Positions 2,918 to 60,190 are shown, counted from the first letter of the stretch. The stretch: 64,000 bases of DNA from Patescibacteria group bacterium (GCA_028716725.1 JAQUPG010000008.1:3653-67652); one strand, 5' to 3'. Made by a program: numbers and translations. The notes: generated by a model not told the origin, from the sequence alone.

Positions 2918-3406
2918 ATGTGGTCCATTTTAATTGTTCTCTTGTTTCTTTGTGGTCTAGCCGCCGTCTTGGAAGCATTTAATGCGCGGGCAACAAATAA
3001 TCTATCGGATCGGATACTCGCCTGTTTGGGCGTTATTACGTTTGTGTTCGGCACGTTTTTCGCGATTATAACCTATGATGCCTATCACACTTGGCCGGTG
3101 CGACATACTCTTAAGCTGACTGTCGTTGCGGCCCAGAAATCTATGGGTCCGATCACGTGCCAATATCAAGATGAAAAGGGTACCATTCGTTTCATCACCA
3201 TCCGTATCTTTGATATTTATCCTAAGGATGGATACACGGTTGACCAAAGGCAGCAACTTGGTCGAATAATTCTTTTCAAACCCCGGGAGATCCATACCGA
3301 TAATATACCCGGCGGAATTTCCCTGGAAGTTATTCCGGCACACTATGAACTTACCGATGAGTTTGATAGGGAAGTCGTCGACCGTCTTAGCCAGCGAGCC
3401 GTGTGA
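2918..3406 (+). CDS. Hypothetical membrane protein (2 N-terminal TM segments)
   Basis: AAGGAGG SD 8 nt upstream; own TTGACA-N16-TAAGAT promoter; higher GC than flanks; no recognisable family. Confidence 0.5.
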   Translation: MWSILIVLLFLCGLAAVLEAFNARATNNLSDRILACLGVITFVFGTFFAIITYDAYHTWPVRHTLKLTVVAAQKSMGPITCQYQDEKGTIRFITIRIFDIYPKDGYTVDQRQQLGRIILFKPREIHTDNIPGGISLEVIPAHYELTDEFDREVVDRLSQRAV

Positions 3407-3507
3407 GTGGAAAGATTTCTCTCTTAGAAGACGAGGAAGAAAAAATCAGCCAGTCCTTAAATACTTGGGGCTGGTTTTTTAATGGGTTTTAAGTCTTTTA
3501 TTTACGG

Positions 3508-3535
3508 TTGACAGAAAATATTTATATGTTAAGAT
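3508..3535 (+). promoter_or_regulatory. Near-consensus sigma70-type promoter (TTGACA-N16-TAAGAT) driving an orphan transcript
   Basis: TTGACA 3508-3513, TAAGAT 3530-3535; the same architecture recurs at about 2848, 31342-31370(-) and 37930-37958. Confidence 0.5.
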
Positions 3536-4641: not shown

Positions 4642-5145
4642 ATGGAGATAGCAATTTATATTATAATTTTATATTTTATCCTTGTTTTTTTTCTTTCCCG
4701 TTTTATTATTCCCCATCTTTCTTTCGGCCCTGACTCAATGCCCGAAAAAATTCCGGCAGAGATGGAAAAAGTAATTGAGGACCTGAAAAATAAAGTTAAT
4801 TCATCAAGGGAATTTTTAGAGCTGGCTTTTAATTATTTAGGGACAAGATATCATTCCGAGCGGCTGGCAACGGTTTTAAAGTTTCATTTTATGTTTAAAA
4901 GTCTGGAAGATATCTGGAGCCGGACCGGTTTTATTCCCTGCAATCAAAGTAATTTTTTACTGCGAATTTTTTTAGTAAAAAGCGGATGGTTTAAAGATGA
5001 AAAAATTCGGCGGAAACATTTTTTTGTTAATTTTGTCCCGCATCAGTATTTGCAAGTTAAATTAGAAAATAAGTGGCTTGATGTTGACGTCGGAGAAAAA
5101 TATCGGGGTATGCCAATCGGGAGACATTTAAAATATTTTGGATAA
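4642..5145 (+). CDS. Membrane-anchored transglutaminase-like (Cys-His-Asp) protein
   Basis: N-terminal TM; GFIPCNQSNFLLRIFLVKSGW ... VPHQYLQVKLENKWLDVDV fits the transglutaminase-core C...H...D pattern; start 1 nt after the upstream stop. Confidence 0.5.
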   Translation: MEIAIYIIILYFILVFFLSRFIIPHLSFGPDSMPEKIPAEMEKVIEDLKNKVNSSREFLELAFNYLGTRYHSERLATVLKFHFMFKSLEDIWSRTGFIPCNQSNFLLRIFLVKSGWFKDEKIRRKHFFVNFVPHQYLQVKLENKWLDVDVGEKYRGMPIGRHLKYFG

Positions 5146-5209
5146 CGACCTCTCCCCTTTCCCCTCTCCTAATTAGGAGAGGGGAGCTAGAGGGGTGAGG
5201 TAAAAATAT

Positions 5210-6562
5210 ATGCGTCAAATTTTAGACCTACATATTCATTCTAGATATTCCCGGGCCTGTTCCTCGCAGCTTAATTTATCCAGCATTGATGCCACCTGCC
5301 GGATTAAGGGAATAGATATTATCGCCACTGGAGATTTTACTTATCCGGAATGGTTTTTTAATATTAAAAGTGAATTGGAGGAGATTGATAATTCGGGGCT
5401 GTATAAACTTAAAGAAGCAAGGGATGATAAAGTAAACCCCGCACCATTTGGCAATTATGCTCAAGGCACCAAGGGTGCTATTGCCAAATGGTGCGGGGTA
5501 AAGTTTTTACTTTCCACGGAATTATCTTTAATTTATAAGGATGGTGAAAGGGTGAGGCGAATTCATATCGTCGTACAGGCGCCGAATACTGCCGCGGTGG
5601 AAGAGCTAAATAATTATCTGGATAAAAAATATAATATCCGCTCTGACGGTAGGCCGATTTTAGGCATGAAAGCGCCGGAACTGGTTAAGCTTTGCTTATC
5701 AATCCATCCCAAATTTTTAATTTACCCGGCCCATATCTGGACGCCCTGGTTCGCGGTTTTCGGCTCTAAATCTGGTTTTGATTCTATGGAAGAATGCTTT
5801 CATGACGAGACAAAAAATATTTACGCCATAGAAACCGGACTTTCAAGCGACCCGGCTATGAATTGGCGTTTGTCGGCTTTGGACAAATTAACGATTCTTT
5901 CCAACTCCGACGCCCATAGTCTGCCCAATCTTGGCCGGGAAGCTAATGTTATGGATTTGGATGAAATTAGTTATGATGAAATATATAGGGTGATAAAAGA
6001 AAAAGATTTGAATAAATTGAAATACACGATTGAATTCTATCCGGAAGAGGGCATGTATCATTTTGACGGGCACCGGGATTGTAAGATAAGATTTTCGCCC
6101 CAAGAAACGAAAAAACATAAAGGCATTTGCCCGGTTTGCAAAAAACCCTTAACTGTGGGTGTGATGAACCGGGTCAATGAATTAGCTGATCGACCCGCCT
6201 TCGCCGAGGCTACGGCGGGCAAGCCCGTTGGTTTAAATCCGCCAGCTGGGCAAGCCAAATTTATTAAATTAGTGGAACTGGATAAAATAATTGCCGAAGC
6301 TTTAAATATAAAAAGCCGCCAGTCACGTCAGGTGCAGGCGGAATATAATAGTTTAATTAAAAAGGTTGGATCGGAGATGAATATTTTATTGAATGAATCT
6401 CTAGAAAATTTAAGCAAAATGACTCTGCCAATAATTGTAAAAGGCATAGAAAGAGTCAGGGAAGGAAAATTAATAGTTGAGCCCGGATTTGACGGCCAAT
6501 ACGGGACAGTAAAAATATTTTCCGCGAAAGAAAAAGAAGATAAACAATGTAAATTATTTTAA
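5210..6562 (+). CDS. Endonuclease Q (EndoQ) family PHP-domain nuclease with Zn-ribbon
   Basis: LDLHIHSRYSRA, PAHIWTPW, SNSDAHS, YHFDGHRDC...CPVCKKPLTVGVMNRVNELADR, PGFDGQYG resemble Pyrococcus EndoQ; carries two GC-rich palindromic in-frame inserts. Confidence 0.75.
   Translation: MRQILDLHIHSRYSRACSSQLNLSSIDATCRIKGIDIIATGDFTYPEWFFNIKSELEEIDNSGLYKLKEARDDKVNPAPFGNYAQGTKGAIAKWCGVKFLLSTELSLIYKDGERVRRIHIVVQAPNTAAVEELNNYLDKKYNIRSDGRPILGMKAPELVKLCLSIHPKFLIYPAHIWTPWFAVFGSKSGFDSMEECFHDETKNIYAIETGLSSDPAMNWRLSALDKLTILSNSDAHSLPNLGREANVMDLDEISYDEIYRVIKEKDLNKLKYTIEFYPEEGMYHFDGHRDCKIRFSPQETKKHKGICPVCKKPLTVGVMNRVNELADRPAFAEATAGKPVGLNPPAGQAKFIKLVELDKIIAEALNIKSRQSRQVQAEYNSLIKKVGSEMNILLNESLENLSKMTLPIIVKGIERVREGKLIVEPGFDGQYGTVKIFSAKEKEDKQCKLF
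5436..5499. repeat. CCCGCACC-family palindromic element, in frame inside the EndoQ CDS
   Basis: Perfect 20-bp arms ACCCCGCACCATTTGGCAAT (5436-5455) / ATTGCCAAATGGTGCGGGGT (5480-5499); nested GCACC/GGTGC; encodes NPAPFGNYAQGTKGAIAKWCG. Confidence 0.8.
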
Positions 6563-13279: not shown

Positions 13280-14225
13280 CCTTTACTATCTCGAAGTTTT
13301 CTTCCTCCTTATTCCTCGGAAATAGAGGAAACATCAGTCCGGTAATTTCCGCGGCTCATTCCCGGTTAATCATCAGGCTTTGTAGGTATGGAACCGAAAG
13401 CCGGGAAGGCCGGTGGACGGCGGGGAGTATCGTCGTGTGTTGAATCGTGCGATTCCCCGAAACCGGGCTGGCGTGGAAACAGAAATCTCCGCTGCACTGT
13501 TTGGGCTTCAATTTGGTCGCCGAGTCGGGAGTTGGCCTTCGAGCGATAACACTCGTAGAGTGTTTACGGTAAGGTAACCAAAGACTCCTTCGGACGCTGG
13601 TGAGCCGCTTAAAGTGCAGAGTCGCTTTACATCCCCTTGCGGAGGATGTTATTTTTGGTGAAACTTGTTGAATTCGCGCGGTTACCGCCTATTTTCTACA
13701 CGAGGTTTTACTCGTGTCATCATTGGTTATAGCTACCTTTGGTGTTATAGGTTGGGTTTTGCCGCGCCAGACGCGGAATGTGCTGCTTTAGCGCCCCCAC
13801 AACGATATTATCTATTGTGGGGGCTAGTAATTTTTTTGTTCCAACGATTGTGCATGGTGTCGACCCGTCTTTCTTACTTCGGGTTTTCCCGTCCCGTTTC
13901 TTGGCCGCTCGTGTGGGCCGTACGTTTAGGACGGGTTTGTTCCTCGATTCGATCTCAGGCCCGCTTCCTCATCTTCCGGGATTTAGCCGGAGCCGGGGGA
14001 AGCGGTCCGCGCCGAGCGTCAGTGTCGGTTGATGGTCGTACCGGGCGCCGAGGTGTCGATGACGATCATGATCGGATTTTCGAACCCGGTTCCTAACATG
14101 GTGTTGCTTTTGCGATTGGGCGCTGCTCGAGCCATGGAGTGCCTCCGGCGTGGGTTTGGGCGAATGATTCGACCTGGCCTCCGAGGATTGGAGACCGCTC
14201 TTTGCGGTTTTTTAAGCCGCGATGT
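13255..14225 (-). ncRNA. Candidate very large (about 0.95 kb) structured ncRNA, family unknown; strand assignment tentative
   Basis: No credible ORF; GC about 60% against AT-rich flanks; many perfect 7-10 bp helices; end-to-end helix 13305-13320 / 14180-14193; - strand promoters and terminator, but also a + strand hairpin+T6 at 14193-14213. Confidence 0.5.
14019..14135 (-). CDS. 38-codon SD-preceded small ORF inside the GC-rich region (coding status uncertain)
   Basis: GGAGG (14142-14146) 6 nt upstream of ATG; MARAAPNRKSNTMLGTGFENPIMIVIDTSAPGTTINRH. Confidence 0.25.
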   Translation of the reverse strand: MARAAPNRKSNTMLGTGFENPIMIVIDTSAPGTTINRH

Positions 14226-14923: not shown

Positions 14924-15792
14924 ATTTTCTTCAGAACTTTTAGGATTTGTTTATGGACCTTGCCATTGCTAGCGGCTATATATTTGCTTTTTAAATTCCA
15001 TTCCTTTCCGGAAAAATCAGTTACCTTTCCGCCGGCTTCCCGGACAAGTAAGACTCCGGCGGCCACGTCCCAGGAATTGGCTCCGGGGATAACGATTGTT
15101 TCTACCCTGCCGCAGGCGACATAAGCAAGCTCAATGGCGGCGCTGCCAAGCTGGCGGCAATCCAGGCCGCTTAATTTTTGTTTAGTATGATAAGCCAGGG
15201 CTTTTTTTATATCTTTTTCTCTGTGGCTGTGGCAGAAAGTATTTAAGACCTTGCCGGAGGAAATTTTTGAAACTTTAATTTTTTTGTTATTTAGATAAGC
15301 GCCTTTATTTTTTTCCGCCCAGTATAATTCGCCTAAGACCGGAATAAAAATTACGCCCAGGATAATTTTATCCTTATGGGCCAGGGCGATAGAAACTGAC
15401 CAAAGGGGGTTGTGCATAGAAAAATTAGTGGTCCCGTCCAAAGGATCAACAATCCAGAGATAATCGGTCCCGCACCTTTTAAAATATTCTGCTGATTTAT
15501 GGTAAGTTTTTTTATTTTGTCTAAAAGGTGTGGGATTTGTCTGCCCGGCTTCTTCGGATAATATCTGATGATCAGGGAAATATTTTTTTATGGCTCTGAT
15601 TATAATTTTTTCTGCCGTCAGATCCGCCTTAGTTAAAATTTCATGGCGGGACTTTAATTTTATCTTAGCCCGGTCAAAATTAGCATATTCGCGCAAAAGT
15701 ACTTTTCCGGCTTTTTTGGCGGCCTCAATAGCTACTTTTTTAAATTGGTTGTTCACCCCGTTAGAAGTTTTAAATAAATTGTTCTTTTTCAT
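14920..15792 (-). CDS. Inositol monophosphatase family protein (SuhB-like), with repeat-derived N-terminus and an internal repeat insert
   Basis: WIVDPLDGTTNF, ILSEE, WDVAAG motifs. Confidence 0.85.
   Translation of the reverse strand: MKKNNLFKTSNGVNNQFKKVAIEAAKKAGKVLLREYANFDRAKIKLKSRHEILTKADLTAEKIIIRAIKKYFPDHQILSEEAGQTNPTPFRQNKKTYHKSAEYFKRCGTDYLWIVDPLDGTTNFSMHNPLWSVSIALAHKDKIILGVIFIPVLGELYWAEKNKGAYLNNKKIKVSKISSGKVLNTFCHSHREKDIKKALAYHTKQKLSGLDCRQLGSAAIELAYVACGRVETIVIPGANSWDVAAGVLLVREAGGKVTDFSGKEWNLKSKYIAASNGKVHKQILKVLKKI
15468..15535. repeat. CCCGCACC-family palindromic element, in frame inside the IMPase-family CDS
   Basis: Arms TCCCGCACCTTTTA (15468-15481) / CTAAAAGGTGTGGGA (15521-15535), one G/A mismatch; encodes the PTPFRQNKKTYHKSAEYFKRCG insert. 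Confidence 0.7.
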
Positions 15793-31522: not shown

Positions 31523-32743
31523 ATGGCAAAAGTCATAACTGATAGAAGTAAAATTAGAGAAGTTTTGGAGAGGGGAGTGGAAAATATTTATCCGGATAAA
31601 GAATCTTTGGAAAAAGTTTTATCATCAGGAAAAAGGATAAAGCTTTATTGCGGTTTTGATCCAAGCGCCCCATCCCTGCACATCGGCAATGCCATCCAGC
31701 TAAATAAATTAGCCCAGTTTCAGGCTTTAGGGCACGAAGTTATTTTTTTAATTGGGGATTTTACCGGCATGATTGGCGACCCGACCGATAAAGCGGCGGC
31801 CCGGAAAAAAATGACTAGAAAAGAAGTTTTGGCTAATGCCAAAAATTACAAAAAGCAAGCCAGCGCTTATTTAAGTTTTTCCGGCAGGAACAAAGCGAAA
31901 ATAATGTATAACAGCAAATGGAACGATAAATTAAATTTTGCTGGTTTAATTGATTTGGCTTCTAATTTTACAGTCCAGCAAATGATTGCCAGGGATATGT
32001 TTCAGGACCGCTTAAAAGAAGACAAGCCGATTTATCTCCATGAATTTCTCTATCCTTTGGCCCAGGGCTATGACAGCGTGGCCATGGACGTTGATTTGGA
32101 AATCGGAGGCAATGACCAGATGTTTAATATGCTTTGCGGCAGGGATTTGATGAAAGCCATAAAGGGGAAAGAAAAATTTGTTTTAACTACGAAACTATTG
32201 GTTGATCCGACCGGAAAGAAAATGGGCAAGACCGAGGGCAATATTGTAAACCTGGACGAGAATCCTCAGGACATGTACGGAAAAATTATGTCCTGGCCGG
32301 ACGGAGTGATTATCCCGGGTTTTGAACTTTGTACAAAGATACCGATGGCCGAGGTGGAAAAAATAAAAAGAGAACTGGAGAACGGGAAAACAAATCCCAG
32401 AGATTTTAAAATGAAATTGGCTTATGAGATAACGAAAATGAATTGGGGAGAAAAAAAAGCCGAGGAAGCGCAGGATTATTTTGTTAAGACGATACAGAAG
32501 AAAGAAGCACCGGATGAAGTTAAAAGTAAAAAGTTAAAAGTAAAAAGTATGAATATAGTCGATTTGTTAGTGGAGGTAGAATTGGCGAGTAGTAAAAGTG
32601 AAGCTCGGCGTTTAATAGAACAAGGCGGGATAAAAGTTGGCGAGCAAGTTATTAGTGATATTGGCAAAAAAATTGAGGTAACAAAAAATGGTGTTTTAAT
32701 TCAGAGAGGAAAGAGGCAATTTATTAAAGTAATTGGGGAATAA
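31523..32743 (+). CDS. tyrS: Tyrosyl-tRNA synthetase
   Basis: HIGN and KMGKT class I motifs; C-terminal S4-like domain. Confidence 0.95.
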   Translation: MAKVITDRSKIREVLERGVENIYPDKESLEKVLSSGKRIKLYCGFDPSAPSLHIGNAIQLNKLAQFQALGHEVIFLIGDFTGMIGDPTDKAAARKKMTRKEVLANAKNYKKQASAYLSFSGRNKAKIMYNSKWNDKLNFAGLIDLASNFTVQQMIARDMFQDRLKEDKPIYLHEFLYPLAQGYDSVAMDVDLEIGGNDQMFNMLCGRDLMKAIKGKEKFVLTTKLLVDPTGKKMGKTEGNIVNLDENPQDMYGKIMSWPDGVIIPGFELCTKIPMAEVEKIKRELENGKTNPRDFKMKLAYEITKMNWGEKKAEEAQDYFVKTIQKKEAPDEVKSKKLKVKSMNIVDLLVEVELASSKSEARRLIEQGGIKVGEQVISDIGKKIEVTKNGVLIQRGKRQFIKVIGE

Positions 32744-32910
32744 TTAATGCTTCGCTAGGATTTACTTTTGTGACTCTGCTATTTTCCTTGTCATCCCGGC
32801 CCGCGAGCCGGGATCCAGAATTAAACGGCAGGAATGTCTAGCATAATTTTACTGGTTTAATAGTCTGTGCGGCTTTCTTCTGGATTCCCGCTTTCGCGGG
32901 AATGACGGGG
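32744..32910. repeat. Composite repeat: 5' GCTTCGCTAGGA..TACTTTTG module plus two GC-rich hairpins in inverted orientation
   Basis: TTAATGCTTCGCTAGGATTTACTTTTG matches the 5' ends of the 36585 and 37689 copies; GTCATCCCGGCCCGCGAGCCGGGATCCAGAA (32790-32820) and TTCTGGATTCCCGCTTTCGCGGGAATGAC (32878-32906). Confidence 0.6.
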
Positions 32911-32930
32911 GATGTATTAGTAAGAAGATT

Positions 32931-34658
32931 ATGTATACGTTGGAAAAAATAAAAGAACATATTGCAGAGAAAATTAATAAGGCGCTGGGAGAAGAAATTA
33001 TTAAGGCGTCCTCTTTAGTTTATCCGCCCAGTCTGGAAATGGGAGATTTAAGCTTGCCCTGCTTTCAGCTAATCGGAGCGACGAAAAAATCTCCGGCCGA
33101 GTCGGCTGATTTTTTAATCAATAAGATTTCGGCTGATGATATAATTACTAATTTAAAAGCGATTGGGCCGTATTTAAATTTTACGATTAACAAGGAATAT
33201 TTAACCGAGGAAGTGATGAAAGAAATATCAAAGGAAAAGGAAGAATATGGAAAAAACAAAACGGGCAAGGGCGAGAAGGTAATGATAGAATATTCTAATG
33301 CCAATACGCACAAAGAGTATCACATCGGCCATTTGCGAAATATCTGCTATGGGGAAGCGGTAAAAAGGATTTTGGCAGCCAGCGGCTATAAAGTTATACC
33401 GGTTTCCTATATCAATGATTTCGGCATTCATGTCGCCAAGACTTTGTGGAATTATGACGATTTTATAAAAGAAAAAAGCTTAAAAGAAAAAATCGAAAAA
33501 ATGCCGGAGGAAGAAAAAGGCTATCTTTTAGGCGAAATGTACGTGGCGGCCTGCCGGCGGGAAGAAAAAGATAAGACTGCCAAAACCATGATAAGTTTTT
33601 TTATGAAAAAACTGGAAAGCCGGCAGGGAGCCGAATATAAGCTTTGGCAGAAAACTAGGGAGTGGAGCATAAAATATTTCGCCAAAATTTATGAGGAGTT
33701 GGGCGTTTGTTTTAAAGATATTTTTTACGAAAGCCAGTATATTGATAAGGGAATAAAAATGGTGAAACGTCTCCGGGCCGAAGGGATTTTAAAAGAAAGC
33801 GAAGGGGCCGTAATTGCCGATTTGGAAAAATTGGGCGTGCTTTTATTCTTGCGCTCGGACGGAACCGCGCTTTATCCGGTGGCGGACGTTCCTTTGGCCA
33901 TTGATAAATTTAAAAAATATAAAATAGATAAATCAATTTACGTCGTGGACATAAGACAGAGCCTGTACTTTAAGCAGCTCTTCGCGGTTTTAGAAAAAAT
34001 GGGGTATAAGCAAAAATTAATTCATTTAGGCTACGAGTTTGTCAATCTGCCTTCGGGAATGATGTCTTCCCGGACCGGGAATGTTATCACTTACCGGGGT
34101 TTAAAAGAGGAGATGCTATCTAAAGCCGCGGGAGAAACGAAAAAAAGGCATAAAGACTGGCCGCAAGATAGAGCGGAAGAAGTGGCAGAAAAGATTACTT
34201 TAGGCGCCATGAAATTTGAAATGATAAAGGTTAGTGCTAGTAGCGTTATCACTTTTGACATAAACAAAGCTTTGCAATTTGACGGTTACACCGCGGCTTA
34301 TCTACAATATACTTATGCCAGGATAAACAGCATTTTCCGCAAATCGCAAATCGCAAATCGCAAATCGCAAAATTTCAAGTCTGAAGAATTAGTTGAGGAT
34401 AAGGAAAATAATTTGATATTGAAATTGGCAAAATACCCGGAAGTGGTGGAAAAAGCCGGGGAGAGTTATGATCCGGCGGAAATTGCCAAATATTTATTTG
34501 AGTTGGCCCAGGATTTTAATGATTATTACCATAGCGTACCGGTTTTAAAAGCTGACGATGATGTCAGAAGCGCAAGACTGGCGATGCTTTCGGCTATTAG
34601 CCAAGTGCTCGCAAATGGATTAGAATTATTAGGGATAGAAGCATTAGAAGAAATGTAA
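32931..34658 (+). CDS. argS: Arginyl-tRNA synthetase
   Basis: SNANTHKEYHIGHLRN (HIGH), MSSRTG (KMSKS-like), DALR anticodon-binding end. Confidence 0.95.
   Translation: MYTLEKIKEHIAEKINKALGEEIIKASSLVYPPSLEMGDLSLPCFQLIGATKKSPAESADFLINKISADDIITNLKAIGPYLNFTINKEYLTEEVMKEISKEKEEYGKNKTGKGEKVMIEYSNANTHKEYHIGHLRNICYGEAVKRILAASGYKVIPVSYINDFGIHVAKTLWNYDDFIKEKSLKEKIEKMPEEEKGYLLGEMYVAACRREEKDKTAKTMISFFMKKLESRQGAEYKLWQKTREWSIKYFAKIYEELGVCFKDIFYESQYIDKGIKMVKRLRAEGILKESEGAVIADLEKLGVLLFLRSDGTALYPVADVPLAIDKFKKYKIDKSIYVVDIRQSLYFKQLFAVLEKMGYKQKLIHLGYEFVNLPSGMMSSRTGNVITYRGLKEEMLSKAAGETKKRHKDWPQDRAEEVAEKITLGAMKFEMIKVSASSVITFDINKALQFDGYTAAYLQYTYARINSIFRKSQIANRKSQNFKSEELVEDKENNLILKLAKYPEVVEKAGESYDPAEIAKYLFELAQDFNDYYHSVPVLKADDDVRSARLAMLSAISQVLANGLELLGIEALEEM
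34338..34372 (+). repeat. Tandem heptamer (CGCAAAT x4 plus a partial unit) inside the argS CDS
   Basis: Read directly; translated as RKSQIANRKSQN. Confidence 0.85.
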
Positions 34659-34836
34659 TGTTCAAGACGTTCGTCTATTTTTAAACCTTTTTGTGAACCA
34701 TTAATGCGAATACTTTAGTGATTTTGATAAATTATCAGAGGAATGCGAATGCTACAAATAAATACGAATTATTTATTGTAAAAGAACGGCAACGCTGGAG
34801 AACGTGCCGTTTGGGTAGCCATATTTATAGATTGTT

Positions 34837-35091
34837 TTAACGGGTTATATGCCCGTGTCCCTTTAGGGCTTCAAAAAAAGAGCGGTGAAATACGATACGC
34901 GGAGGGTTTGGTAGGGGCGTAATTAGTGTGTGGTGATCGAACAAGGGTGATTTGGATGATGCTGGGGTATTTCTTTCTCTCGGTGTATGGGAAGATGCGC
35001 TCGGGAGAGGTGGGATCAGTATGTAGTGATTAAATAAGGGCGATCTGGTTGAGCCAGGTCCCGCGGGTGTCCACTTATTAGGATTATTCAT
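34837..35091 (-). CDS. Hypothetical Pro-rich 84-aa protein with an internal tandem repeat (coding status uncertain)
   Basis: GAGGAGGAG SD; repeats SPLFNHYILIPPLP / SPLFDHHTLITPLP; region is GC-richer and G-rich on the + strand. Confidence 0.3.
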   Translation of the reverse strand: MNNPNKWTPAGPGSTRSPLFNHYILIPPLPSASSHTPRERNTPASSKSPLFDHHTLITPLPNPPRIVFHRSFFEALKGHGHITR

Positions 35092-35173
35092 TTTCTCCTC
35101 CTCGTTTTTTCTGGTTTATGCTTACATAATAAAATACATTGATTATTAAGTCAATTATCGATAAAATAATAAT

Positions 35174-36499
35174 ATGGTAGAAGAAAAGAATAATTTAATG
35201 GATAAAATTGAGTCTTTATGCAAAAGGCGGGGTTTTGTTTTTCCTGATTCGGAAATTTACGGGGGTATGGCTAATACCTGGGATTACGGGCCTTATGGCG
35301 CGGGAATGAGGAAAAACATAAAAGACCGGTGGTGGAAAAAATTTGTCCAGGACCGGGACGATATGGTCGGTTTGGACGCGGCCTTGATTATGAATCCGAA
35401 GGTCTGGGAGGCTAGCGGGCATCTGGCTAATTTTAAAGACCCGATGGTGGAGTGCGAGAAATGTCATGGCCGGTTTCGGGAAGATGATTTAGAAAATAAC
35501 CCTTCGGCTGGGGTCGGGGCAGGAAAATGCCCGGATTGCGAAGGGAAGCTGACGGCTCCGAAGCAGTTTAATATGATGTTTAAGACTTTTTTCGGCCCGG
35601 CCGAAGAAAGCGCCAATGTCGCTTATTTCCGGCCGGAAACCGCCCAAGGGATTTTTGTTAATTTTAAAAATATTATTGACACGACCAGGAAGAAACTTCC
35701 TTTTGGCATCGGCCAAATCGGCAAAGCTTTCCGCAATGAAATTACGCCGGGCAATTTTATTTTCCGAACCCGCGAGTTTGAGCAGATGGAAATAGAATAT
35801 TTTATTCCCGTCCCGAAAAAGGACAAGGACTGGGAAAAGTATTTCGAGGACTGGCGGAAAGAAATGATCGGCTGGATAAAAGACTTGGGCATTGACGTAA
35901 AAAAAGAAATCCACGAACTAAACGTGCCTAAAGATGAGCTCGCGCATTATTCTAAAAAAACCATTGATTTTGAATATAAGTTCCCTTTTGGCCAGAAAGA
36001 ATTATATGGTTTGGCTTACCGGACTGATTTTGATTTAAAAAGCCACGGTTTAGATTATACTGACGAAGATGGCAATAAATTTATTCCGCATGTGATTGAA
36101 CCGTCTTTAGGAGTTGACCGGAGTTTTTTGGCAGCTTTGTGCTCGGCTTATACGGAAGAAAAAGTGAAAGATGAAATGCGGGCGGTATTAAAGTTGCCGG
36201 TTTGGCTCTCTCCGGTTAAGATTGCGGTTTTTCCCTTGCTTAAAAATAAGCCGGAGTTGGTAAAAAAAGCCAAAGAGATTTTTAATGGTTTAAAAACAGA
36301 TTATGTTTGCGAGTTTGATGATAACGGCAACGTAGGCAAGCGATACAGGCGGCAGGATGAAATCGGCACGCCTTATTGCCTTACCGTAGATTTTGACAGT
36401 CTGGAAAAAGATGACGTGACCGTGCGCGACCGCGACAGTATGAAGCAGGTGAGGGTAAAAATAAAAGAGTTGGGAGATTATTTTAAGTATAAGCTGTAA
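35174..36499 (+). CDS. glyQS: Glycyl-tRNA synthetase, alpha2 dimeric type
   Basis: Class II motifs (FRPETAQG, GKAFRNEI, GVDR), Zn-ribbon insertion, C-terminal anticodon-binding domain. Confidence 0.95.
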   Translation: MVEEKNNLMDKIESLCKRRGFVFPDSEIYGGMANTWDYGPYGAGMRKNIKDRWWKKFVQDRDDMVGLDAALIMNPKVWEASGHLANFKDPMVECEKCHGRFREDDLENNPSAGVGAGKCPDCEGKLTAPKQFNMMFKTFFGPAEESANVAYFRPETAQGIFVNFKNIIDTTRKKLPFGIGQIGKAFRNEITPGNFIFRTREFEQMEIEYFIPVPKKDKDWEKYFEDWRKEMIGWIKDLGIDVKKEIHELNVPKDELAHYSKKTIDFEYKFPFGQKELYGLAYRTDFDLKSHGLDYTDEDGNKFIPHVIEPSLGVDRSFLAALCSAYTEEKVKDEMRAVLKLPVWLSPVKIAVFPLLKNKPELVKKAKEIFNGLKTDYVCEFDDNGNVGKRYRRQDEIGTPYCLTVDFDSLEKDDVTVRDRDSMKQVRVKIKELGDYFKYKL

Positions 36500-36584
36500 T
36501 AATTTAAATTAAGATATTTTTAACGGCTTAGCATTTTTAAAAATGACTGAGCCGTTTTTGGATTAAAGAGATAACTAAAGATGC

Positions 36585-36785
36585 AATAACGCTTCGCTAG
36601 GACCTACTTTTGCCCGCCTTGCCGTCCGCCTCGTCGGCGAGACGGGGCGAGGCAGGTAACCAAAAGTAGGCAAAAGTTTCGGGGGCCTCCCGCCTTCGCT
36701 AACGCTTCGGCGGGCAAGCAATTCTTAGCTCAGCCTGCCCCGCAGTCTTGCGGGGTTCGGCCCCCGAACCCCATGGTGATTTAAA
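36585..36785 (+). repeat. Structured repeat copy A (201 nt), immediately upstream of the ComEC-family MBL gene
   Basis: AATAACGCTTCGCTAGGAC...; helix CCTACTTTTG(36603-36612)/CAAAAGTAGG(36661-36670); helix TTCGGGGGCC(36678-36687)/GGCCCCCGAA(36759-36768); ends CCCCATGGTGATTTAAA. Confidence 0.7.
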
Positions 36786-36812
36786 GAAGTGTGATTATGC
36801 TATAATTAAAAT

Positions 36813-37670
36813 ATGTCTGCCAAACTTTATAAAATTTTATTGATTTTAGGCATTGTCATAACTTTATCGGCCGTTCCGGTTTTTGTTTTATCTTACGATC
36901 CACCTAAAGAGCTAGAAGTAGATTTTTTTGACGTGGGACAAGGGGACGCGATTTTAATTAAATCGCCAATGGGCCAGAATATTTTAATCGACGGCGGTCC
37001 GGATAATAAAGTTATCGAAGAACTGGGTAAAAATTTGCCTTTTTGGGACAAGCAGATTGATTTAATGGTTTTAACCCACCCGCATGACGACCATGCCACC
37101 GGCTTAATTGAAGTAATAAAGAGATATAGCGTAAAAAAGATTCTTTATACCGGCGTTGTCCATGGCGCGCCTAATTATCTGGCCTGGCTAGAAGAGGTTA
37201 GGGAAAGAAAGATACCCTTGATAATTATTGACCGGCCGCAAAAAATCGTTTTGGGTGATAGCTGTTATTTAGATATAATATATCCGACCAAAAGTTTGCT
37301 TGGGCAAGAAGTGGAAAATTTGAATAATAGTTCTATTGTGGCCAAATTGGTTTATGGCCAGACAAAATTTTTACTGACGGGCGATGCTGAAGCAGAAGTG
37401 GAGAAAGAATTGCTTGACGTTAGGGTTGACTTATCCGCCCAGGTTTTAAAAACCGGGCATCATGGTTCCGATACTTCTTCCAGTGAAGATTTTTTAGAAG
37501 CGGTGAATCCAAAATTAGCAGTTATTCAGGTTGGCAAAGACAATGACTTCGGCCATCCCAGCTTAAGGATATTAAAAAGATTAGAAAGAATTGGGGCAGA
37601 AATTTTGCGGACTGATATTAATGGGGCAGTGAAAATAATAAGCAATGGGAAAGAGATAGATAGAAAGTAA
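36813..37670 (+). CDS. ComEC/Rec2-related metallo-beta-lactamase-fold protein (stand-alone C-terminal domain with TM anchor)
   Basis: FFDVGQGDAILI, LTHPHDDHATGL, GHHGS motifs. Confidence 0.8.
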   Translation: MSAKLYKILLILGIVITLSAVPVFVLSYDPPKELEVDFFDVGQGDAILIKSPMGQNILIDGGPDNKVIEELGKNLPFWDKQIDLMVLTHPHDDHATGLIEVIKRYSVKKILYTGVVHGAPNYLAWLEEVRERKIPLIIIDRPQKIVLGDSCYLDIIYPTKSLLGQEVENLNNSSIVAKLVYGQTKFLLTGDAEAEVEKELLDVRVDLSAQVLKTGHHGSDTSSSEDFLEAVNPKLAVIQVGKDNDFGHPSLRILKRLERIGAEILRTDINGAVKIISNGKEIDRK

Positions 37671-37688
37671 TAGAGTTTAATAATTAAT

Positions 37689-37855
37689 AATAACGCTTCG
37701 CTAGGACTTACTTTTGTAACCGTTCGACTGAGCTCACGCCGAAGCCAAAAGTAAGCAAAAGTTTCGGGGGTCTCAATTCGCTATCACGCTGATTAAGCTA
37801 TAAATTGGCTCGCCTTGGCGCTCAGTTCGGCCCCCGAACCCCCTGGTGATTTAAA
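37689..37855 (+). repeat. Structured repeat copy B (167 nt), immediately downstream of the MBL gene
   Basis: Same conserved ends as copy A; helix CTTACTTTTG(37707-37716)/CAAAAGTAAG(37746-37755) shows a compensatory C:G to T:A change; variable loops. Confidence 0.7.
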
Positions 37856-37964
37856 ACGTCGTTATCCAAATTAGTTATTTAACGAAGCGTAGCAAAATAC
37901 GGCTTGAAAGCCGTATTTTTTTGTTTCCCTTGACAAGCCCTTTTTTATATGCTAAGATAGCCAG

Positions 37965-38208
37965 TTAACAATTAAAGGTCGTTTTAAACGGGTCAGGCAC
38001 GACAAGCATGGGGATTTTCTTATTAGGGTTCTTAGGCCCATAATAGGAAGTAAAAGAAGTAATAAATAAATCCAGATATGCCGGTCAAGAATTAAGAATT
38101 TTTTGTTTTCTGTTTTGGGCTTAGAAACACCTAAAGGAAATTTTCTTGCCTGCCCGTTTAAGTCGGCCTTTTGTTTTAAAAAACACGGTTTTAACGCCGT
38201 GCTTTTTT
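37965..38208 (+). ncRNA. Candidate rod-shaped small RNA (198-nt irregular hairpin), 6S-like architecture; identity unconfirmed
   Basis: TTGACA(37930-37935)-N17-TAAGAT(37953-37958); 5' arm from 37974 pairs with 3' arm ending 38171 (about 27 bp closing stem, then ATTTTC/GGAAAT, TTAGG/CCTAA, TTAGGCCC/GGGCTTAG); A/U-rich centre; no downstream + strand gene. Confidence 0.45.
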
Positions 38209-38224
38209 ATTTTGATGATTCTAT

Positions 38225-40132
38225 TTATTGCTTGATGTCTGCATTCTCCGGAGTTGAAGAAGCGGTTGTTAATTCTTCCACGCCTATAAGGCAGACTTCC
38301 TGCCAGGGAACGTAATGGGAGGAAAATCTTTTAGACTTTACTTCCGGGGTAGAAGTGGCGGTCGAAGCCGGATAAGTGACTTTATAATCGAAATAAGCGT
38401 CCGCTCCGTTATGGGCTTTTTCTGTGCATTTTTTCTCGCCGACTGGTAGATCCAGAGTTTCTACAATCTTGGTTGGTCCGGGTTTGACGATATTGTAAAT
38501 TGTCGGGTCGGTTTTTTCCACGATCCGGCCGTCATTAGTTCCCCAGAAATCGAAATACAAATTATCTCCGGCAATCCGCGTCTGGATTAGAATGTAGTGG
38601 CCGGTATCGTTAATAAACCGGACATCAGGCCAGGGGCTATAAATCGTCGCATCCGTGCCGGCCGGCTCATAATAAGAAACTCGGTAAGAATGGTTTTGTC
38701 TCATAGTTATGGGCAGCCCAGTAGCCACGGCTCCCCGGAACATAGTCGTGCCGATCTGGCATAACCCGCCGCCGTATTCCGGAATAGTTTCATTGCCCTT
38801 TATGACTAATTCAGGCAGATAACCGGTTTCAGCCTCAATTTCTCCCAGGGCTTTATTCAAAGAAAATTCTTCGTCGGGTTTTATTAAGATGCCGTTTAAC
38901 GAATCAGAGCCGACTTTTATATTATGGCGCCTATTAACCGGAGAGCCGGCAAAATTAGACTCCCCGGTGCCGATAATTTCTCTTATGCCCAAATCATTTA
39001 TGGTTCCGGTATCAACCGTACTTTTCATTTCTTCAGTTGTCAGTTCGACCGTATTATTTTTATTATTTATAAATTCATCCCTGATCTTATTTATATCGTC
39101 TTCTATTTTTAACTTTAAGCCGTCCTGGCTGCCCTGAAATTCGGCTACCCGGCCGTTGCTCATTTTAAAGCGGGCGTCAATCGGCTCCCTTTCTATTTCC
39201 GGAGCGACAGTTTTCTCTAAAAATTCGGTTAATTTTTCCGGGCTTAAACTAACTATTATTTCCCCCTCTTTATTTCGGCCGGAATCTTGGCTATTTTCCC
39301 GGCGCTCCAAAGCCAGCATATCGGCCAGCTGCTTTTTTTCTATAATCCATTTCTTTTTTTGGTAGACTAAAGTCAGGGGAGAAGTTTCCAGAATTTTTTC
39401 CGCCTCGGCTTCAACGTTCAGGCATTCATTTTTGTAGATAGAAGGATAATCGGTTTTACTGGTAAGTTCTATCGCAGAGAAATCCAGCTTATTTAATTTT
39501 ATTTTTAATTCTTCTATGGCCCTGGCGTAATCTATGACTTTCCCAAGTTTTTCTTCATCCAGGGAGAAAATAATTTTTTCCGGATTCTCCGGCGTGGTCG
39601 TGGCGGTTAAAGCAGCGCTTCGGCCCGGGTTAGCGAATTTTTCATAATTAGTTTTAAGGATTTTTTCTATTTCCCCCTCATTTAGGGAATAGATTATTCC
39701 GGCTTGTTTTCCGAAGATAAGGGCTGTGGCCTTGTCCTGCAGGTTAAGGAAAAAATTTCTGTCCCGGCCGAAAGAAAAAATTTCCTCGCTGGTTTTTTCA
39801 GGCTCAAAAGAAACAATCCGGTAAGCGAGGTCAGCCTCCAAAGAAGAGATAGTCGGCGTAAGGGTAGTTTGGGAATCGGCATATTTAAACCTTAATCCGG
39901 TCCGGTTAAGATCATCTATTTTTTCTCCCAATAACTTTTCCGCCCCGGCCTTTGTCAGCCCGCTTAAATCTATATTTCCCATTCTAATCCCCGGGTAGAT
40001 TCTTCCTTCATATTGCTTTTCAAAAATTAAAAAAGCGCCGGCCAGTATGGCCAGGGAAATAAAAAAAATAGCCACAAGAATAAGTAGCCATTTCAAAAAT
40101 CGGTTTTTGATCAGGTTAATGCCCGGCATCAT
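38225..40132 (-). CDS. VanW family protein
   Basis: N-terminal TM; C-terminal GGGLCQIGTTMFRGAVATGL...QNHSYRVSYY VanW signature. Confidence 0.8.
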   Translation of the reverse strand: MMPGINLIKNRFLKWLLILVAIFFISLAILAGAFLIFEKQYEGRIYPGIRMGNIDLSGLTKAGAEKLLGEKIDDLNRTGLRFKYADSQTTLTPTISSLEADLAYRIVSFEPEKTSEEIFSFGRDRNFFLNLQDKATALIFGKQAGIIYSLNEGEIEKILKTNYEKFANPGRSAALTATTTPENPEKIIFSLDEEKLGKVIDYARAIEELKIKLNKLDFSAIELTSKTDYPSIYKNECLNVEAEAEKILETSPLTLVYQKKKWIIEKKQLADMLALERRENSQDSGRNKEGEIIVSLSPEKLTEFLEKTVAPEIEREPIDARFKMSNGRVAEFQGSQDGLKLKIEDDINKIRDEFINNKNNTVELTTEEMKSTVDTGTINDLGIREIIGTGESNFAGSPVNRRHNIKVGSDSLNGILIKPDEEFSLNKALGEIEAETGYLPELVIKGNETIPEYGGGLCQIGTTMFRGAVATGLPITMRQNHSYRVSYYEPAGTDATIYSPWPDVRFINDTGHYILIQTRIAGDNLYFDFWGTNDGRIVEKTDPTIYNIVKPGPTKIVETLDLPVGEKKCTEKAHNGADAYFDYKVTYPASTATSTPEVKSKRFSSHYVPWQEVCLIGVEELTTASSTPENADIKQ

Positions 40133-41143: not shown

Positions 41144-41151
41144 CATTCTGT

Positions 41152-41264
41152 AGTGCGCTTGGATGCCTGCCTGCCGGTAGGCAGGGACTCGAACCCGCCC
41201 GCCTTGCTTCGCAAGGCGAAGCGGGCGGGCCATCGACCCCCCGTTCACCCCGTTAAATTTTGCG
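41152..41264 (-). pseudogene. Decayed tRNA-Ile-like copy with two palindromic inserts in the T arm
   Basis: GTGCGCTTGGAT / ACTCGAACC / CCATCGACCCCC blocks match the adjacent tRNA-Ile; inserts CCTGCCTGCCGGTAGGCAGG (41165-41184) and CGCCCGCCTTGCTTCGCAAGGCGAAGCGGGCGGG. Confidence 0.45.
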
Positions 41265-41363
41265 CTTTATCGGTGCGCTTGGATGGACTTGAACCATCGA
41301 CCCCCGCTTTATAAGAGCGGTGCTCTAACCAACTGAGCTACAAGCGCAAAATAATTTAACGGG
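41247..41363. repeat. CCCCGTTAAATT / AATTTAACGGGG inverted repeats bracketing the tRNA-Ile gene
   Basis: Perfect 12-nt arms at 41247-41258 and 41352-41363. Confidence 0.65.
41273..41346 (-). tRNA. tRNA-Ile (anticodon UAU)
   Basis: Acceptor GCGCTTG/CAAGCGC, D GCTC/GAGC, anticodon stem CCGCT/AGCGG with loop CTTATAA, T stem GATGG/CCATC with TTCAAGT. Confidence 0.85.
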
Positions 41364-41366
41364 GCA

Positions 41367-41403
41367 AGTAAGAGCGGTGCTCTAACCAACTGAGCTACTG
41401 GTG
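41367..41403 (-). pseudogene. Orphan tRNA 5' half (acceptor GCACCAG, through the anticodon loop CTTAC..)
   Basis: GCACCAGTAGCTCAGTTGGTTAGAGCACCGCTCTTAC; no matching 3' half found in the window. Confidence 0.4.
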
Positions 41404-43462: not shown

Positions 43463-43561
43463 CCCCGTTAGAAATTCTATCGGTTAAAGGGTAAAGAAAT
43501 TTTTAACAGGGGAAAAGATTTACAAATATGAAGAAAGAAAACAAAAAGATTTCTAACGGGG
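43463..43561. repeat. CCCCGTTAGAAAT-family element containing the valS start codon
   Basis: CCCCGTTAGAAAT (43463-43475) / ATTTCTAACGGGG (43549-43561); the ATG at 43528 lies inside; encodes MKKENKKISNG. Confidence 0.75.
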
Positions 43562-59829: not shown

Positions 59830-60190
59830 TCAAAACTCCTCGCCCCGTTAGAGAAATTTTTTAACGGGGCAAAGGTAAGAAATAGACGATTCTGCCCTAG
59901 TTATTTTAAAATCAAAGAGTCGTGGGCTAGAAGTTGGTCATTTTCCGCTGAGGCACAATACTTTTAATAATAGAAAAGCCGATAACGAATAGGGTAATTT
60001 CTCTAACGGGGTAAACCAATGGCCCTCAATTTACTACTTGCTTCTGGGCGTTAGTTTGTAGATTGCTTTCCTCCTTGGTGATTTATAAATTAATTTGTCC
60101 CTTATCAGCAAGTAGTAAATCGGAGGCGATTGGGAAAAACCGGCTATCAAGATTTGTTTTTTTAAATTAAATTACTGATAGCTTTTTTAA
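59830..60190 (+). ncRNA. Possible non-coding transcript(s) in the 0.6 kb dprA-tRNA spacer; very tentative
   Basis: TTGACT-N17-TAATAT at about 59795-59823; helix ATTTACTACTTGCT/AGCAAGTAGTAAAT (about 60040-60120); GCTATCA...TGATAGC + T6 at about 60144-60188; no ORF. Confidence 0.2.
59843..60011. repeat. 169-nt element with perfect 16-nt terminal inverted repeats CCCCGTTAGAGAAATT / AATTTCTCTAACGGGG
   Basis: Arms at 59843-59858 and 59996-60011. Confidence 0.75.

Follow-up and report, generated by a model that had tools for sequence, protein, structure and literature searches.

What are the two GC-rich, structured repeats that stand on either side of a gene for a metallo-beta-lactamase (MBL)-fold protein in a patescibacterial genome, and did they come with that gene or independently of it? 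The question arises in a 64,000-nt stretch of DNA from a Patescibacteria group bacterium (GCA_028716725.1, JAQUPG010000008.1:3653-67652), hereafter called the window, which is AT-rich (41.5% GC) and in which the two repeats, copies A and B, form GC-rich islands, one in each spacer flanking the MBL gene. In the initial annotation they had been described as direct repeats that bracket the gene like a cassette and whose conserved helices point to selection on structure. The reading preferred here, held with only slightly more than even confidence, is that A and B are independently placed members, one of a subfamily alpha and one of a subfamily beta, of a low-copy, GC-rich, non-coding family of interspersed elements in Patescibacteria. 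Judged from its genomic context, the MBL gene belongs to the vertically inherited core genome and is a bystander, not cargo. The element family is apparently undescribed: no account of interspersed structured repeats in Patescibacteria was found in the literature, and a comparison of positions 32600-38200 with Rfam 15 gave no match at the gathering score and nothing credible at E<=10.

Relatives of the repeats were collected by scanning species-representative genomes and metagenome contigs with the 5' module, and syntenic loci were reached through the contigs of MBL and TyrRS homologues; the loci and contigs from these scans and look-ups are denoted by L-numbers. A covariance-model search, of the kind that the initial annotation had proposed, did bring in more copies. 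With model R1, built from seven copies, 9 distinct full copies scoring 107-170 bits were found in ~7 Patescibacteria genomes or contigs, namely A, B, L001, L013, L015, L016 (two copies), L017 (= L024 = L025) and L029. Searches of viral contigs and plasmids gave no match to the element, and a phage search returned one 33-nt chance match only; matches in L004 and L011, which lie inside coding regions, were discarded as chance. The core of the element measures ~145 nt, with a minimal form of 143 nt in L013, and consists, in order, of the 5' box RACGCTTCGCTAGG, a hairpin P2, the linker CAAAAGT, an arm P3, CCCC and the 3' sequence TGGTGATTT(T)AAA. In the minimal form P2 is a 10-bp hairpin, CYTACTTTTG-TAAC-CAAAAGTARG. 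P3, the long arm, has a closing GC helix of 10 bp (TTCGGGGGCC/GGCCCCCGAA), and its interior takes the alpha form in A, L001, L017 and L029 and the beta form in B, L013, L015 and L016. Inspection of the copies revealed no conserved open reading frame (ORF) on either strand; a small ORF or type I toxin was considered and set aside, the short frames differing among copies and not being hydrophobic. Copy A is 95% identical to the copies in L017 and L029, which lie at other loci in other genomes, and B is 94% identical to the L013 copy, compared with 84% between A and B. Because each is closer to copies elsewhere than to the other, A and B are best seen as separate arrivals of the two subfamilies.

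Within the window, the conserved ends that A and B had been said to share are borne out by counts. The 5' module GCTTCGCTAGGAYYTACTTTTG, a 22-mer, occurs three times (32749, 36591 and 37695, all on the plus strand) and the 30-nt 3' module TTCGGCCCCCGAACCCCNTGGTGATTTAAA twice (36756 and 37826), in both cases against 0 expected. An unfiltered search of the whole window with the covariance model matched only A, B and, weakly, a third copy, C, which had already been noticed from 32744 as carrying the 5' module alone and is indeed such a remnant, beginning 2 nt past the TyrRS stop codon. The remainder of C is replaced by a foreign GTCAT...ATGAC palindromic element, which is conserved in L003 and the right half of which also occurs in a spacer of L037, without type I sequence there. 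A recurrence of the 3' end near 60076-60092 had been reported as well. The match itself is real (CCTTGGTGATTTATAA, 60073-60088), but it is not counted in the family: it is part of a different hairpin, the model gives no match there, and it was rejected both as a further copy and as an empty target. That hairpin, of ~120 nt (60015-60135, plus strand), lies in a 640-nt spacer upstream of a tRNA-Ser gene, holds CCTTGGTGATTTATAA in its apical stem and has a plus-strand-specific fold (-62 kcal/mol, z = -5.7; minus strand -42.5). A short-read assembly of the same strain (L032) breaks within both A and B.

The two compensatory differences that had been noted between A and B also hold. Helix 1, the stem of P2, is CCTACTTTTG/CAAAAGTAGG in A and CTTACTTTTG/CAAAAGTAAG in B, a C:G to U:A double change, and in helix 2, which closes P3, TTCGGGGGCC of A and TTCGGGGGTC of B both pair with GGCCCCCGAA, a G:C to G:U change. 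The accompanying statement that the loops differ completely is correct in part. The helix-1 loops do carry unrelated GC-rich inserts, but TAAC is common to both; the helix-2 interiors do represent two different subfamilies, but they are homologous and share TTCGCTA and AAGC. A bare TAAC loop is found in five other copies. On this pattern TAAC is the ancestral P2 loop, and the GC-rich inserts of A and B are mutually unrelated.

Across the 9 copies, changes on both sides are seen in 5 of the 20 pairs of P2 and P3 (two in P2, three in P3); the three in P3 all come from one lineage, L016, so that the independent events are few. In the model-based alignment pairing is kept in 96.7% of cells, as against 33-56% with the partners slid, and the covariation score is 0.141, compared with 0.047 in shuffled and <=0.044 in slid alignments. 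In distant relatives, the base of P2 shows additional pair types, G:C and U:A. Between A and B, the stems (helix 1, helix 2 and an inferred closing helix) differ at 3 of 56 positions, with pairing kept in all three, the boxes and junctions at 2 of 31, and the P3 interior at 29 of its 56 aligned positions, with 15 gap columns in addition. P2 and P3 are thus maintained and stem mismatches are rare, so the equal mismatch frequency in stems and loops that random divergence would produce is not what is observed. The earlier claim of selection on structure, whether of RNA or of single-stranded DNA, stands for P2 and P3. RNAfold predicts a three-way junction in A (z -5.6) and B (z -2.1) and adds a possible closing helix P1, UCGCUAGG/CC(N)UGGUGA, which is invariant in sequence over the 9 copies and does not covary. 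Folding energy is equal on the plus and minus strands and was abandoned as a means of strand assignment. The plus strand is favoured solely by the invariant P1 and one G:U pair.

The presence of the element varies among relatives at each of the three spacers it occupies in the window. The GlyRS-MBL spacer, which holds A in the window, is empty (77-86 nt) in L005, L007 and L008 and contains other inserts in L001, L006, L028 and L030. On the 3' side of the MBL gene, L005, L006, L007 and L008 are empty and L030 has an insertion sequence (IS) instead; the element is present in the window (beta) and in L001 and L029 (alpha). The IS in L030 carries a DDE transposase gene and lies in this same set of spacers. 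Between TyrRS and ArgRS, the spacer is empty in L033 (18 nt); it is occupied by a complete alpha copy in L017, L024 and L025 and by the degraded copy C in the window and in L003. In the assemblies of two relatives (L005 with L033, and L003 with L006), four sampled stretches contained no intact copy, and a genome scan of the L003/L006 assembly found a degraded copy only. Matches of the window's proteins point to a metagenome-assembled genome of Patescibacteria. The MBL gene itself has thousands of close homologues in Patescibacteria; the window protein is a 100% match to one in GCA_028713775.1, and the gene is 79-83% identical across relatives. The order GlyRS-MBL-VanW is also found in L006, L007 and L008, GlyRS likewise precedes MBL in L001 and L005, and the synteny is the same with 0, 1 or 2 repeats. 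The initial annotation had asked whether the gene is absent at a single repeat in related genomes; L001, with the downstream copy only, still has it.

These properties are best read as those of a non-autonomous structured interspersed bacterial repeat of the BOX/ERIC/bcr1/REP (repetitive extragenic palindromic)/MITE (miniature inverted-repeat transposable element) kind. Such an element would be selfish or near-neutral. It could be spread by a trans-acting factor that recognises a hairpin and an adjacent box on single-stranded DNA, by analogy with REP or IS200/IS605-like elements; this route fits because inverted repeats and duplications are absent, and the unlike hairpins and the low copy number do not fit it. 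Between strains, natural transformation and recombination might also carry the element. When transcribed, as B would be within the MBL 3' untranslated region, its hairpins could form stable stem-loops in the RNA, able to buffer decay of the mRNA or read-through. The aligned copies show that elements decay and, as read from their loops, acquire unrelated small GC-rich palindromes. Inserts are carried by A, B and L001, the linker of L001 holding a 16-nt palindrome; in L029 the 5' strand of P2 is replaced by a 16-nt palindrome, TCCCGCCTAGGCGGGA, and the second L016 copy has a deletion within the 5' box.

In L001, the intact 3' end of the MBL gene lies before the element and a relic of the ancestral 3' end after it. 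Comparison of L001 6621-6690 with L007 4635-4700 resolves this relic into a decayed second MBL 3' end (~45 nt), the stop codon and the downstream spacer. The insertion would accordingly have brought a replacement 3' end, and we infer that this is the trace to be expected when DNA has been taken up and integrated by homology-facilitated illegitimate recombination. This arrangement suggests that spread from strain to strain at one locus can occur by recombination.

Several observations weigh against an interspersed repeat of this kind. No terminal inverted repeats are present at the ends of the element, the sole end-to-end complementarity (UCGCUAGG/CCNUGGUGA) being imperfect and internal and needing G:U pairs on one strand. 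The base-level alignment of L033 (empty) with L024 (filled), the single site at which such a comparison could be made, shows no target-site duplication, and the flanks of the other copies show neither a target duplication nor a conserved tetranucleotide. A target-site duplication, or a likeness of the left flank to the 3' box, was also considered and rejected, since it appears in only 2 of the 9 copies (L013 and L017) and the empty site of L033 lacks it. No transposase, integrase or reverse transcriptase gene adjoins any copy. P2 is AT-rich and unlike the GC-rich P3, when the two ends of IS200/IS605 elements resemble each other. The copy number is low: a single exact match to the 5' 22-mer is present in each of the representative genomes of L001 and L003, and all three occurrences in the window fall within 5 kb, with none in the remaining 59 kb, when REP elements and MITEs are far more numerous. 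Finally, intact copies are 92-95% identical between genomes, more than the neighbouring protein genes (MBL, TyrRS and ArgRS, 69-83%), a difference that would fit purifying selection on an RNA equally well.

The last point leads to the alternative that survives best, one that is judged less likely but a serious competitor. The element would then be a functional structured RNA module under purifying selection, either a cis unit (a processing site, stabiliser or attenuator) or a small trans-acting RNA, with the 5' hairpin module as a protein-binding handle, and it would occasionally be relocated or lost. Besides the conservation and the low copy number, the nearly invariant junction and box residues, the covarying hairpins and the recurrence of the first 50 nt with different 3' parts in other lineages speak for it. 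So does orientation, as 8 of the 9 full copies share that of the gene on their 5' side, a bias that is not significant because only about six sites are independent. Against it stand the close relatives that lack the element at all three window sites, the four sampled stretches without an intact copy, the decay of individual copies (C, L029 and the second L016 copy) and the absence of an Rfam family. The neighbouring genes also share no common function. The intergenic spacers that hold copies are short and permissive. They lie between TyrRS and ArgRS, between GlyRS and MBL, downstream of MBL in its 3' untranslated region, ahead of a tRNA gene, in a terminator-to-promoter gap and in a hemerythrin region, a range of contexts that does not suit a riboswitch or a gene-specific cis-regulator.

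The transcription signals around the copies are equally uneven, no promoter or terminator being conserved at a fixed distance. Copy B follows the MBL stop codon and precedes a predicted terminator (37894-37919), which places it in the 3' untranslated region; L001 and L029 have their copies at the corresponding site, likewise ahead of a conserved terminator. Because they precede it, all three should belong to the MBL mRNA, and B is likely transcribed with the MBL gene. Copy A, on the other hand, follows the terminator-like hairpin of GlyRS and lies ~18 nt upstream of an extended -10 box, TGCTATAAT, which is itself separated from the MBL ATG by 7 nt. The two L016 copies are similarly placed, with a terminator on one side and the next promoter on the other. 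GGTGAT in the 3' box was considered as a Shine-Dalgarno sequence that the 5' box would sequester; this idea was rejected, as GGTGAT stands 21-32 nt from the ATG and most genes of the window have no Shine-Dalgarno sequence. A Shine-Dalgarno-like motif was seen in ~5 of the 33 long ORFs of the window. At several genes (36797-36815, the 18644 region and the 58590 region, and in L005 and L007) a TATAAT box stands 6-8 nt before the ATG without a Shine-Dalgarno sequence, which suggests that several such genes have leaderless mRNAs.

The wider distribution of the 5' module has a further possible meaning. Its first 50 nt (box, P2 and CAAAAG) recur with unrelated 3' parts in L010, L012 and L022, contigs that read as genetic code 25, and the 50-nt module is also present in a Peribacteria genome, L002. 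It is conceivable, though improbable, that this module (RACGCTTCGCTAGG, the TACTTTTG/CAAAAGTA hairpin and CAAAAG) acts as a handle for protein binding in a new class of structured RNA with members throughout the candidate phyla radiation (CPR); lineage-specific 3' domains would be swapped onto the handle, and the class would be mobile or functional as RNA. Under such a scheme the RNA might be, for instance, the substrate or guide of an unidentified enzyme and not a passive DNA repeat, and the class would span Parcubacteria-like, code-25 Gracilibacteria-like and Peribacteria lineages. A multi-copy, terminator-like element of ~70 nt was also noted in the SDBV01 contigs (L009, L014, L019, L020, L021, L026 and L027). 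It reads GGGACAGACCCGTCT..AGACTCGCTTCGCTAGGGTCTACTTTTGCCAAGGCTCAAAAGTCCC followed by a T-run and shares the 22-mer and the following CTTTTG/CAAAAG hairpin with the 5' module. The host is a non-CPR bacterium with multihaem cytochromes and histidine kinases; these repeats, whose likeness may reflect homology or coincidence, were left out of the family.

Two explanations confined to the locus fare far worse than an interspersed family. That A, B and C are scars of local duplication diverging at random is very unlikely: the three copies do lie within 5.1 kb, and the duplicated unit in L016 exceeds the element on both sides, but the flanks of A, B and C share nothing outside the element, the divergence of A from B is concentrated in the P3 interior with pairing kept in the stems, and the two belong to different subfamilies that both occur in other genomes. 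The L016 copies sit in a larger duplicated spacer unit of ~500 nt (2990-3530 and 4770-5245, minus strand) built from short GC-rich words (GTCATTGCGAGGCCGAAGG..., CCTAGCGA three times, and GCGGAGCG...), of which CCTAGCGA is the reverse complement of the TCGCTAGG box. Least credible of all is the mobile MBL cassette of the initial annotation, with A and B as integron attC-like borders or as direct repeats of a composite element, for although A and B do stand in direct orientation around one gene and L016 has two copies around two genes, the constant synteny with or without repeats, the closer kinship of each copy to copies elsewhere, the mostly solitary copies in other genomes, the lack of an integrase among the neighbouring genes and ends without attC R''/R' cores (RYYYAAC, GTTRRRY) or attC-like end-to-end pairing dispose of it.

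The features of the locus, whose wider neighbourhood comprises aminoacyl-tRNA synthetase, VanW and Hsp20 genes, are collected in the table.

Table. Positions of the repeat copies, their parts and the adjoining genes in the window.
Feature	Position	Strand	Remarks
Copy A	36585-36786	+	Full, subfamily alpha; R1: 130 bits, E=6e-38
A, 5' box TAACGCTTCGCTAGGA	36587-36602	+	Sequence invariant across the family
A, 5' strand of possible closing helix P1	36594-36601	+	Putative
A, hairpin P2 (helix 1)	36603-36670	+	Strands 36603-36612 and 36661-36670; two pairs covary in the family
A, P2 loop	36613-36660		44-nt GC-rich insert 36613-36656, then ancestral TAAC 36657-36660
A, linker CAAAAGT	36671-36677	+	Conserved, distant type II copies included
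A, arm P3 (helix 2)	36678-36768	+	Closing helix 36678-36687 with 36759-36768; three pairs covary
A, CCCGCC..GGCGGG hairpin	36689-36714		Part of the alpha-type P3 interior
A, 3' box CCCC-A-TGGTGATTTAAA	36769-36785	+	
Copy B	37689-37856	+	Full, subfamily beta; R1: 149 bits, E=6.6e-44
B, hairpin P2	37707-37755	+	Strands 37707-37716 and 37746-37755
B, P2 loop	37717-37745		TAAC 37717-37720, then 25-nt insert 37721-37745
B, arm P3	37763-37838	+	37763-37772 (TTCGGGGGTC, one G:U) with 37829-37838; beta-type interior
B, 3' box CCCC-C-TGGTGATTTAAA	37839-37855	+	
Copy C, degraded	32745-32770	+	Remnant: 5' box and P2 5' strand; region to ~32925
Foreign GC-rich palindromic element GTCATCCCGG...GGGAATGAC	32790-32906	+	In place of the remainder of copy C
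TyrRS	31523-32743		Protein gene
ArgRS	32931-34658		Protein gene
Class II synthetase, GlyRS type	35174-36499		
MBL-fold gene, ComEC C-terminal-like	36813-37670	+	Pfam PF00753; stop codon 37668-37670
VanW	38225-40132	-	

Small GC-rich palindromes of the kind nested in the element were also met elsewhere. The palindromes TCCCG..CGGGA and CCCGCC..GGCGGG occur not only in the loops of three copies (A, L029 and L001) but also in a tRNA pseudo-copy and within a coding region. The first of the latter two sites lies at 41150-41400 on the minus strand, where the intact tRNA-Ile(UAU) gene (41272-41347) has beside it a second copy of its 5' half (an identical 30-mer, 41369-41398) and a pseudo-copy of its 3' half; the pseudo-copy has two GC-rich palindromic inserts in its T-arm, and the outer flanks, CCCCGTTAAATT.../...AATTTAACGGGG, are inverted repeats. 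The second is at 6194-6224 (plus strand), within ORF 5210-6562, where CCCGCCTTCGCCGAGGCTACGGCGGGCAAGC nearly equals the copy A hairpin at 36689-36719 and is read in frame (RPAFAEATAGKP), the gene encoding a protein with a PHP-associated domain. Insertion of small GC-rich palindromes therefore seems to reach coding sequence as well. Another GC-rich inverted-repeat element, CCTC(A)C.CCCTCTCC... / ...GGAGAGGGG..GAGG, is located at or just after the MBL start codon in L001 (5430-5582), L006 (~1990-2395), L028 (~830-1090) and L030 (~215-385), with the start region duplicated; in L006 and L028 it carries a gene for a DUF559 (Vsr-like endonuclease) protein.

Further non-coding features were recorded around the locus. 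Downstream of copy B, 37930-38210 (plus strand) contains a strong promoter (TTGACA-17-TAAGAT with an upstream TG), a transcript region of ~200 nt and its own terminator at 38184-38201. The region is highly conserved (L001, L006, L007, L008 and L029) and folds as one long rod-like hairpin with many G:U pairs and a few compensatory changes; it has no Rfam match, and its shape and size suggest a 6S-like RNA. The motif TTTCTAACGGGG(T) was found at 15738, 42116 and 43445 (plus strand), inverted at 43546 and ~59995, and in L006 at ~3340. It often lies directly upstream of a -35-like TTGACA and may be a promoter-proximal site. Two other GC-rich regions, 34837-35100 (G-skewed) and 13380-14190, gave no Rfam match, and the ORF tested there (34837-35091) had no Pfam match.

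The genomes of Patescibacteria are tiny and compact, and any retained non-coding element in them is notable. For a structured interspersed repeat, the present family is unusual in combining a low copy number with high conservation between genomes. Its low copy number, its conservation above that of genes and a 5' module common to code-25 lineages raise the question of whether it is selfish DNA or a functional RNA, and the nested GC-rich palindromes, found in loops, in the tRNA pseudo-copy and in the coding region, suggest that insertions in these genomes also arise by a second process of a more general kind. In practice, the covariance model can be used to annotate metagenome-assembled genomes, to explain contig breaks and to mark permissive spacers.

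Among known systems, integron attC sites are structured recombination sites, active as single strands, that likewise occur as direct repeats on either side of genes and combine conserved ends with a variable centre. However, an attC site is one bulged hairpin with paired R''/R' ends and GTT/AAC cores, accompanied by intI and cassette arrays, none of which is seen here, where the ends are RACGCTTCGCTAGG and TGGTGATTT(T)AAA and two separate hairpins lie between them. Yeast mitochondrial GC clusters and the dRS3/NIME repeats of Neisseria are short palindromes, rich in GC, that repeatedly invade AT-rich spacers and one another and so produce mosaics; they are an analogy for the nested inserts only, not for the 145-nt core.

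The mobile hairpin elements offer another comparison. REP, BIME and REPIN sequences and IS200/IS605-derived elements owe their mobility to an HUH tyrosine transposase that acts in trans and is specific for single strands, and they often stand in 3' untranslated regions, where they stabilise mRNA. REPs are 20-40 nt long and abundant, with tens to hundreds per genome and a RAYT gene, and the ends of IS200/IS605 are two similar hairpins inserted next to a fixed tetra- or pentanucleotide. The present element is likewise hairpin-based and intergenic, without terminal inverted repeats or target duplication; unlike them, it has dissimilar hairpins and no fixed flank, and no RAYT or TnpA gene was seen near the copies. 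The lack of a duplication fits an IS200/IS605 type, whereas the unlike hairpins and the absence of a fixed left tetranucleotide do not. A 145-nt core with two full copies and one degraded copy in 64 kb is not that of a REP or REPIN, nor do the ends, lacking inverted repeats and a target duplication, match a DDE-type MITE.

The repeats bcr1 (Bacillus cereus group) and ERIC/IRU (enterobacteria) each consist of one long imperfect palindrome whose ends are inverted, and they are transcribed as parts of adjacent mRNAs; in bcr1 the target duplication is TTTAT. They share with the present family an interspersed distribution, a length of ~130-160 nt, a fold kept by compensatory substitutions and a presence that varies at orthologous sites, and differ from it in that here two separate hairpins lie between fixed, non-complementary boxes. 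BOX elements of Streptococcus pneumoniae exceed 100 copies per genome, vary in the tandem copy number of their middle module, share transcripts with adjacent genes and have no known means of moving. They too are modular intergenic repeats with conserved end modules, a variable middle, a predicted stable RNA and no ORF; they have no sequence similarity to the present element, which has 1-3 copies and varies by unrelated inserts and two interior subfamilies. What the family has in common with structured interspersed repeats as a group is that it is non-coding and intergenic, lies at non-orthologous sites, varies in presence and keeps its fold by compensatory change.

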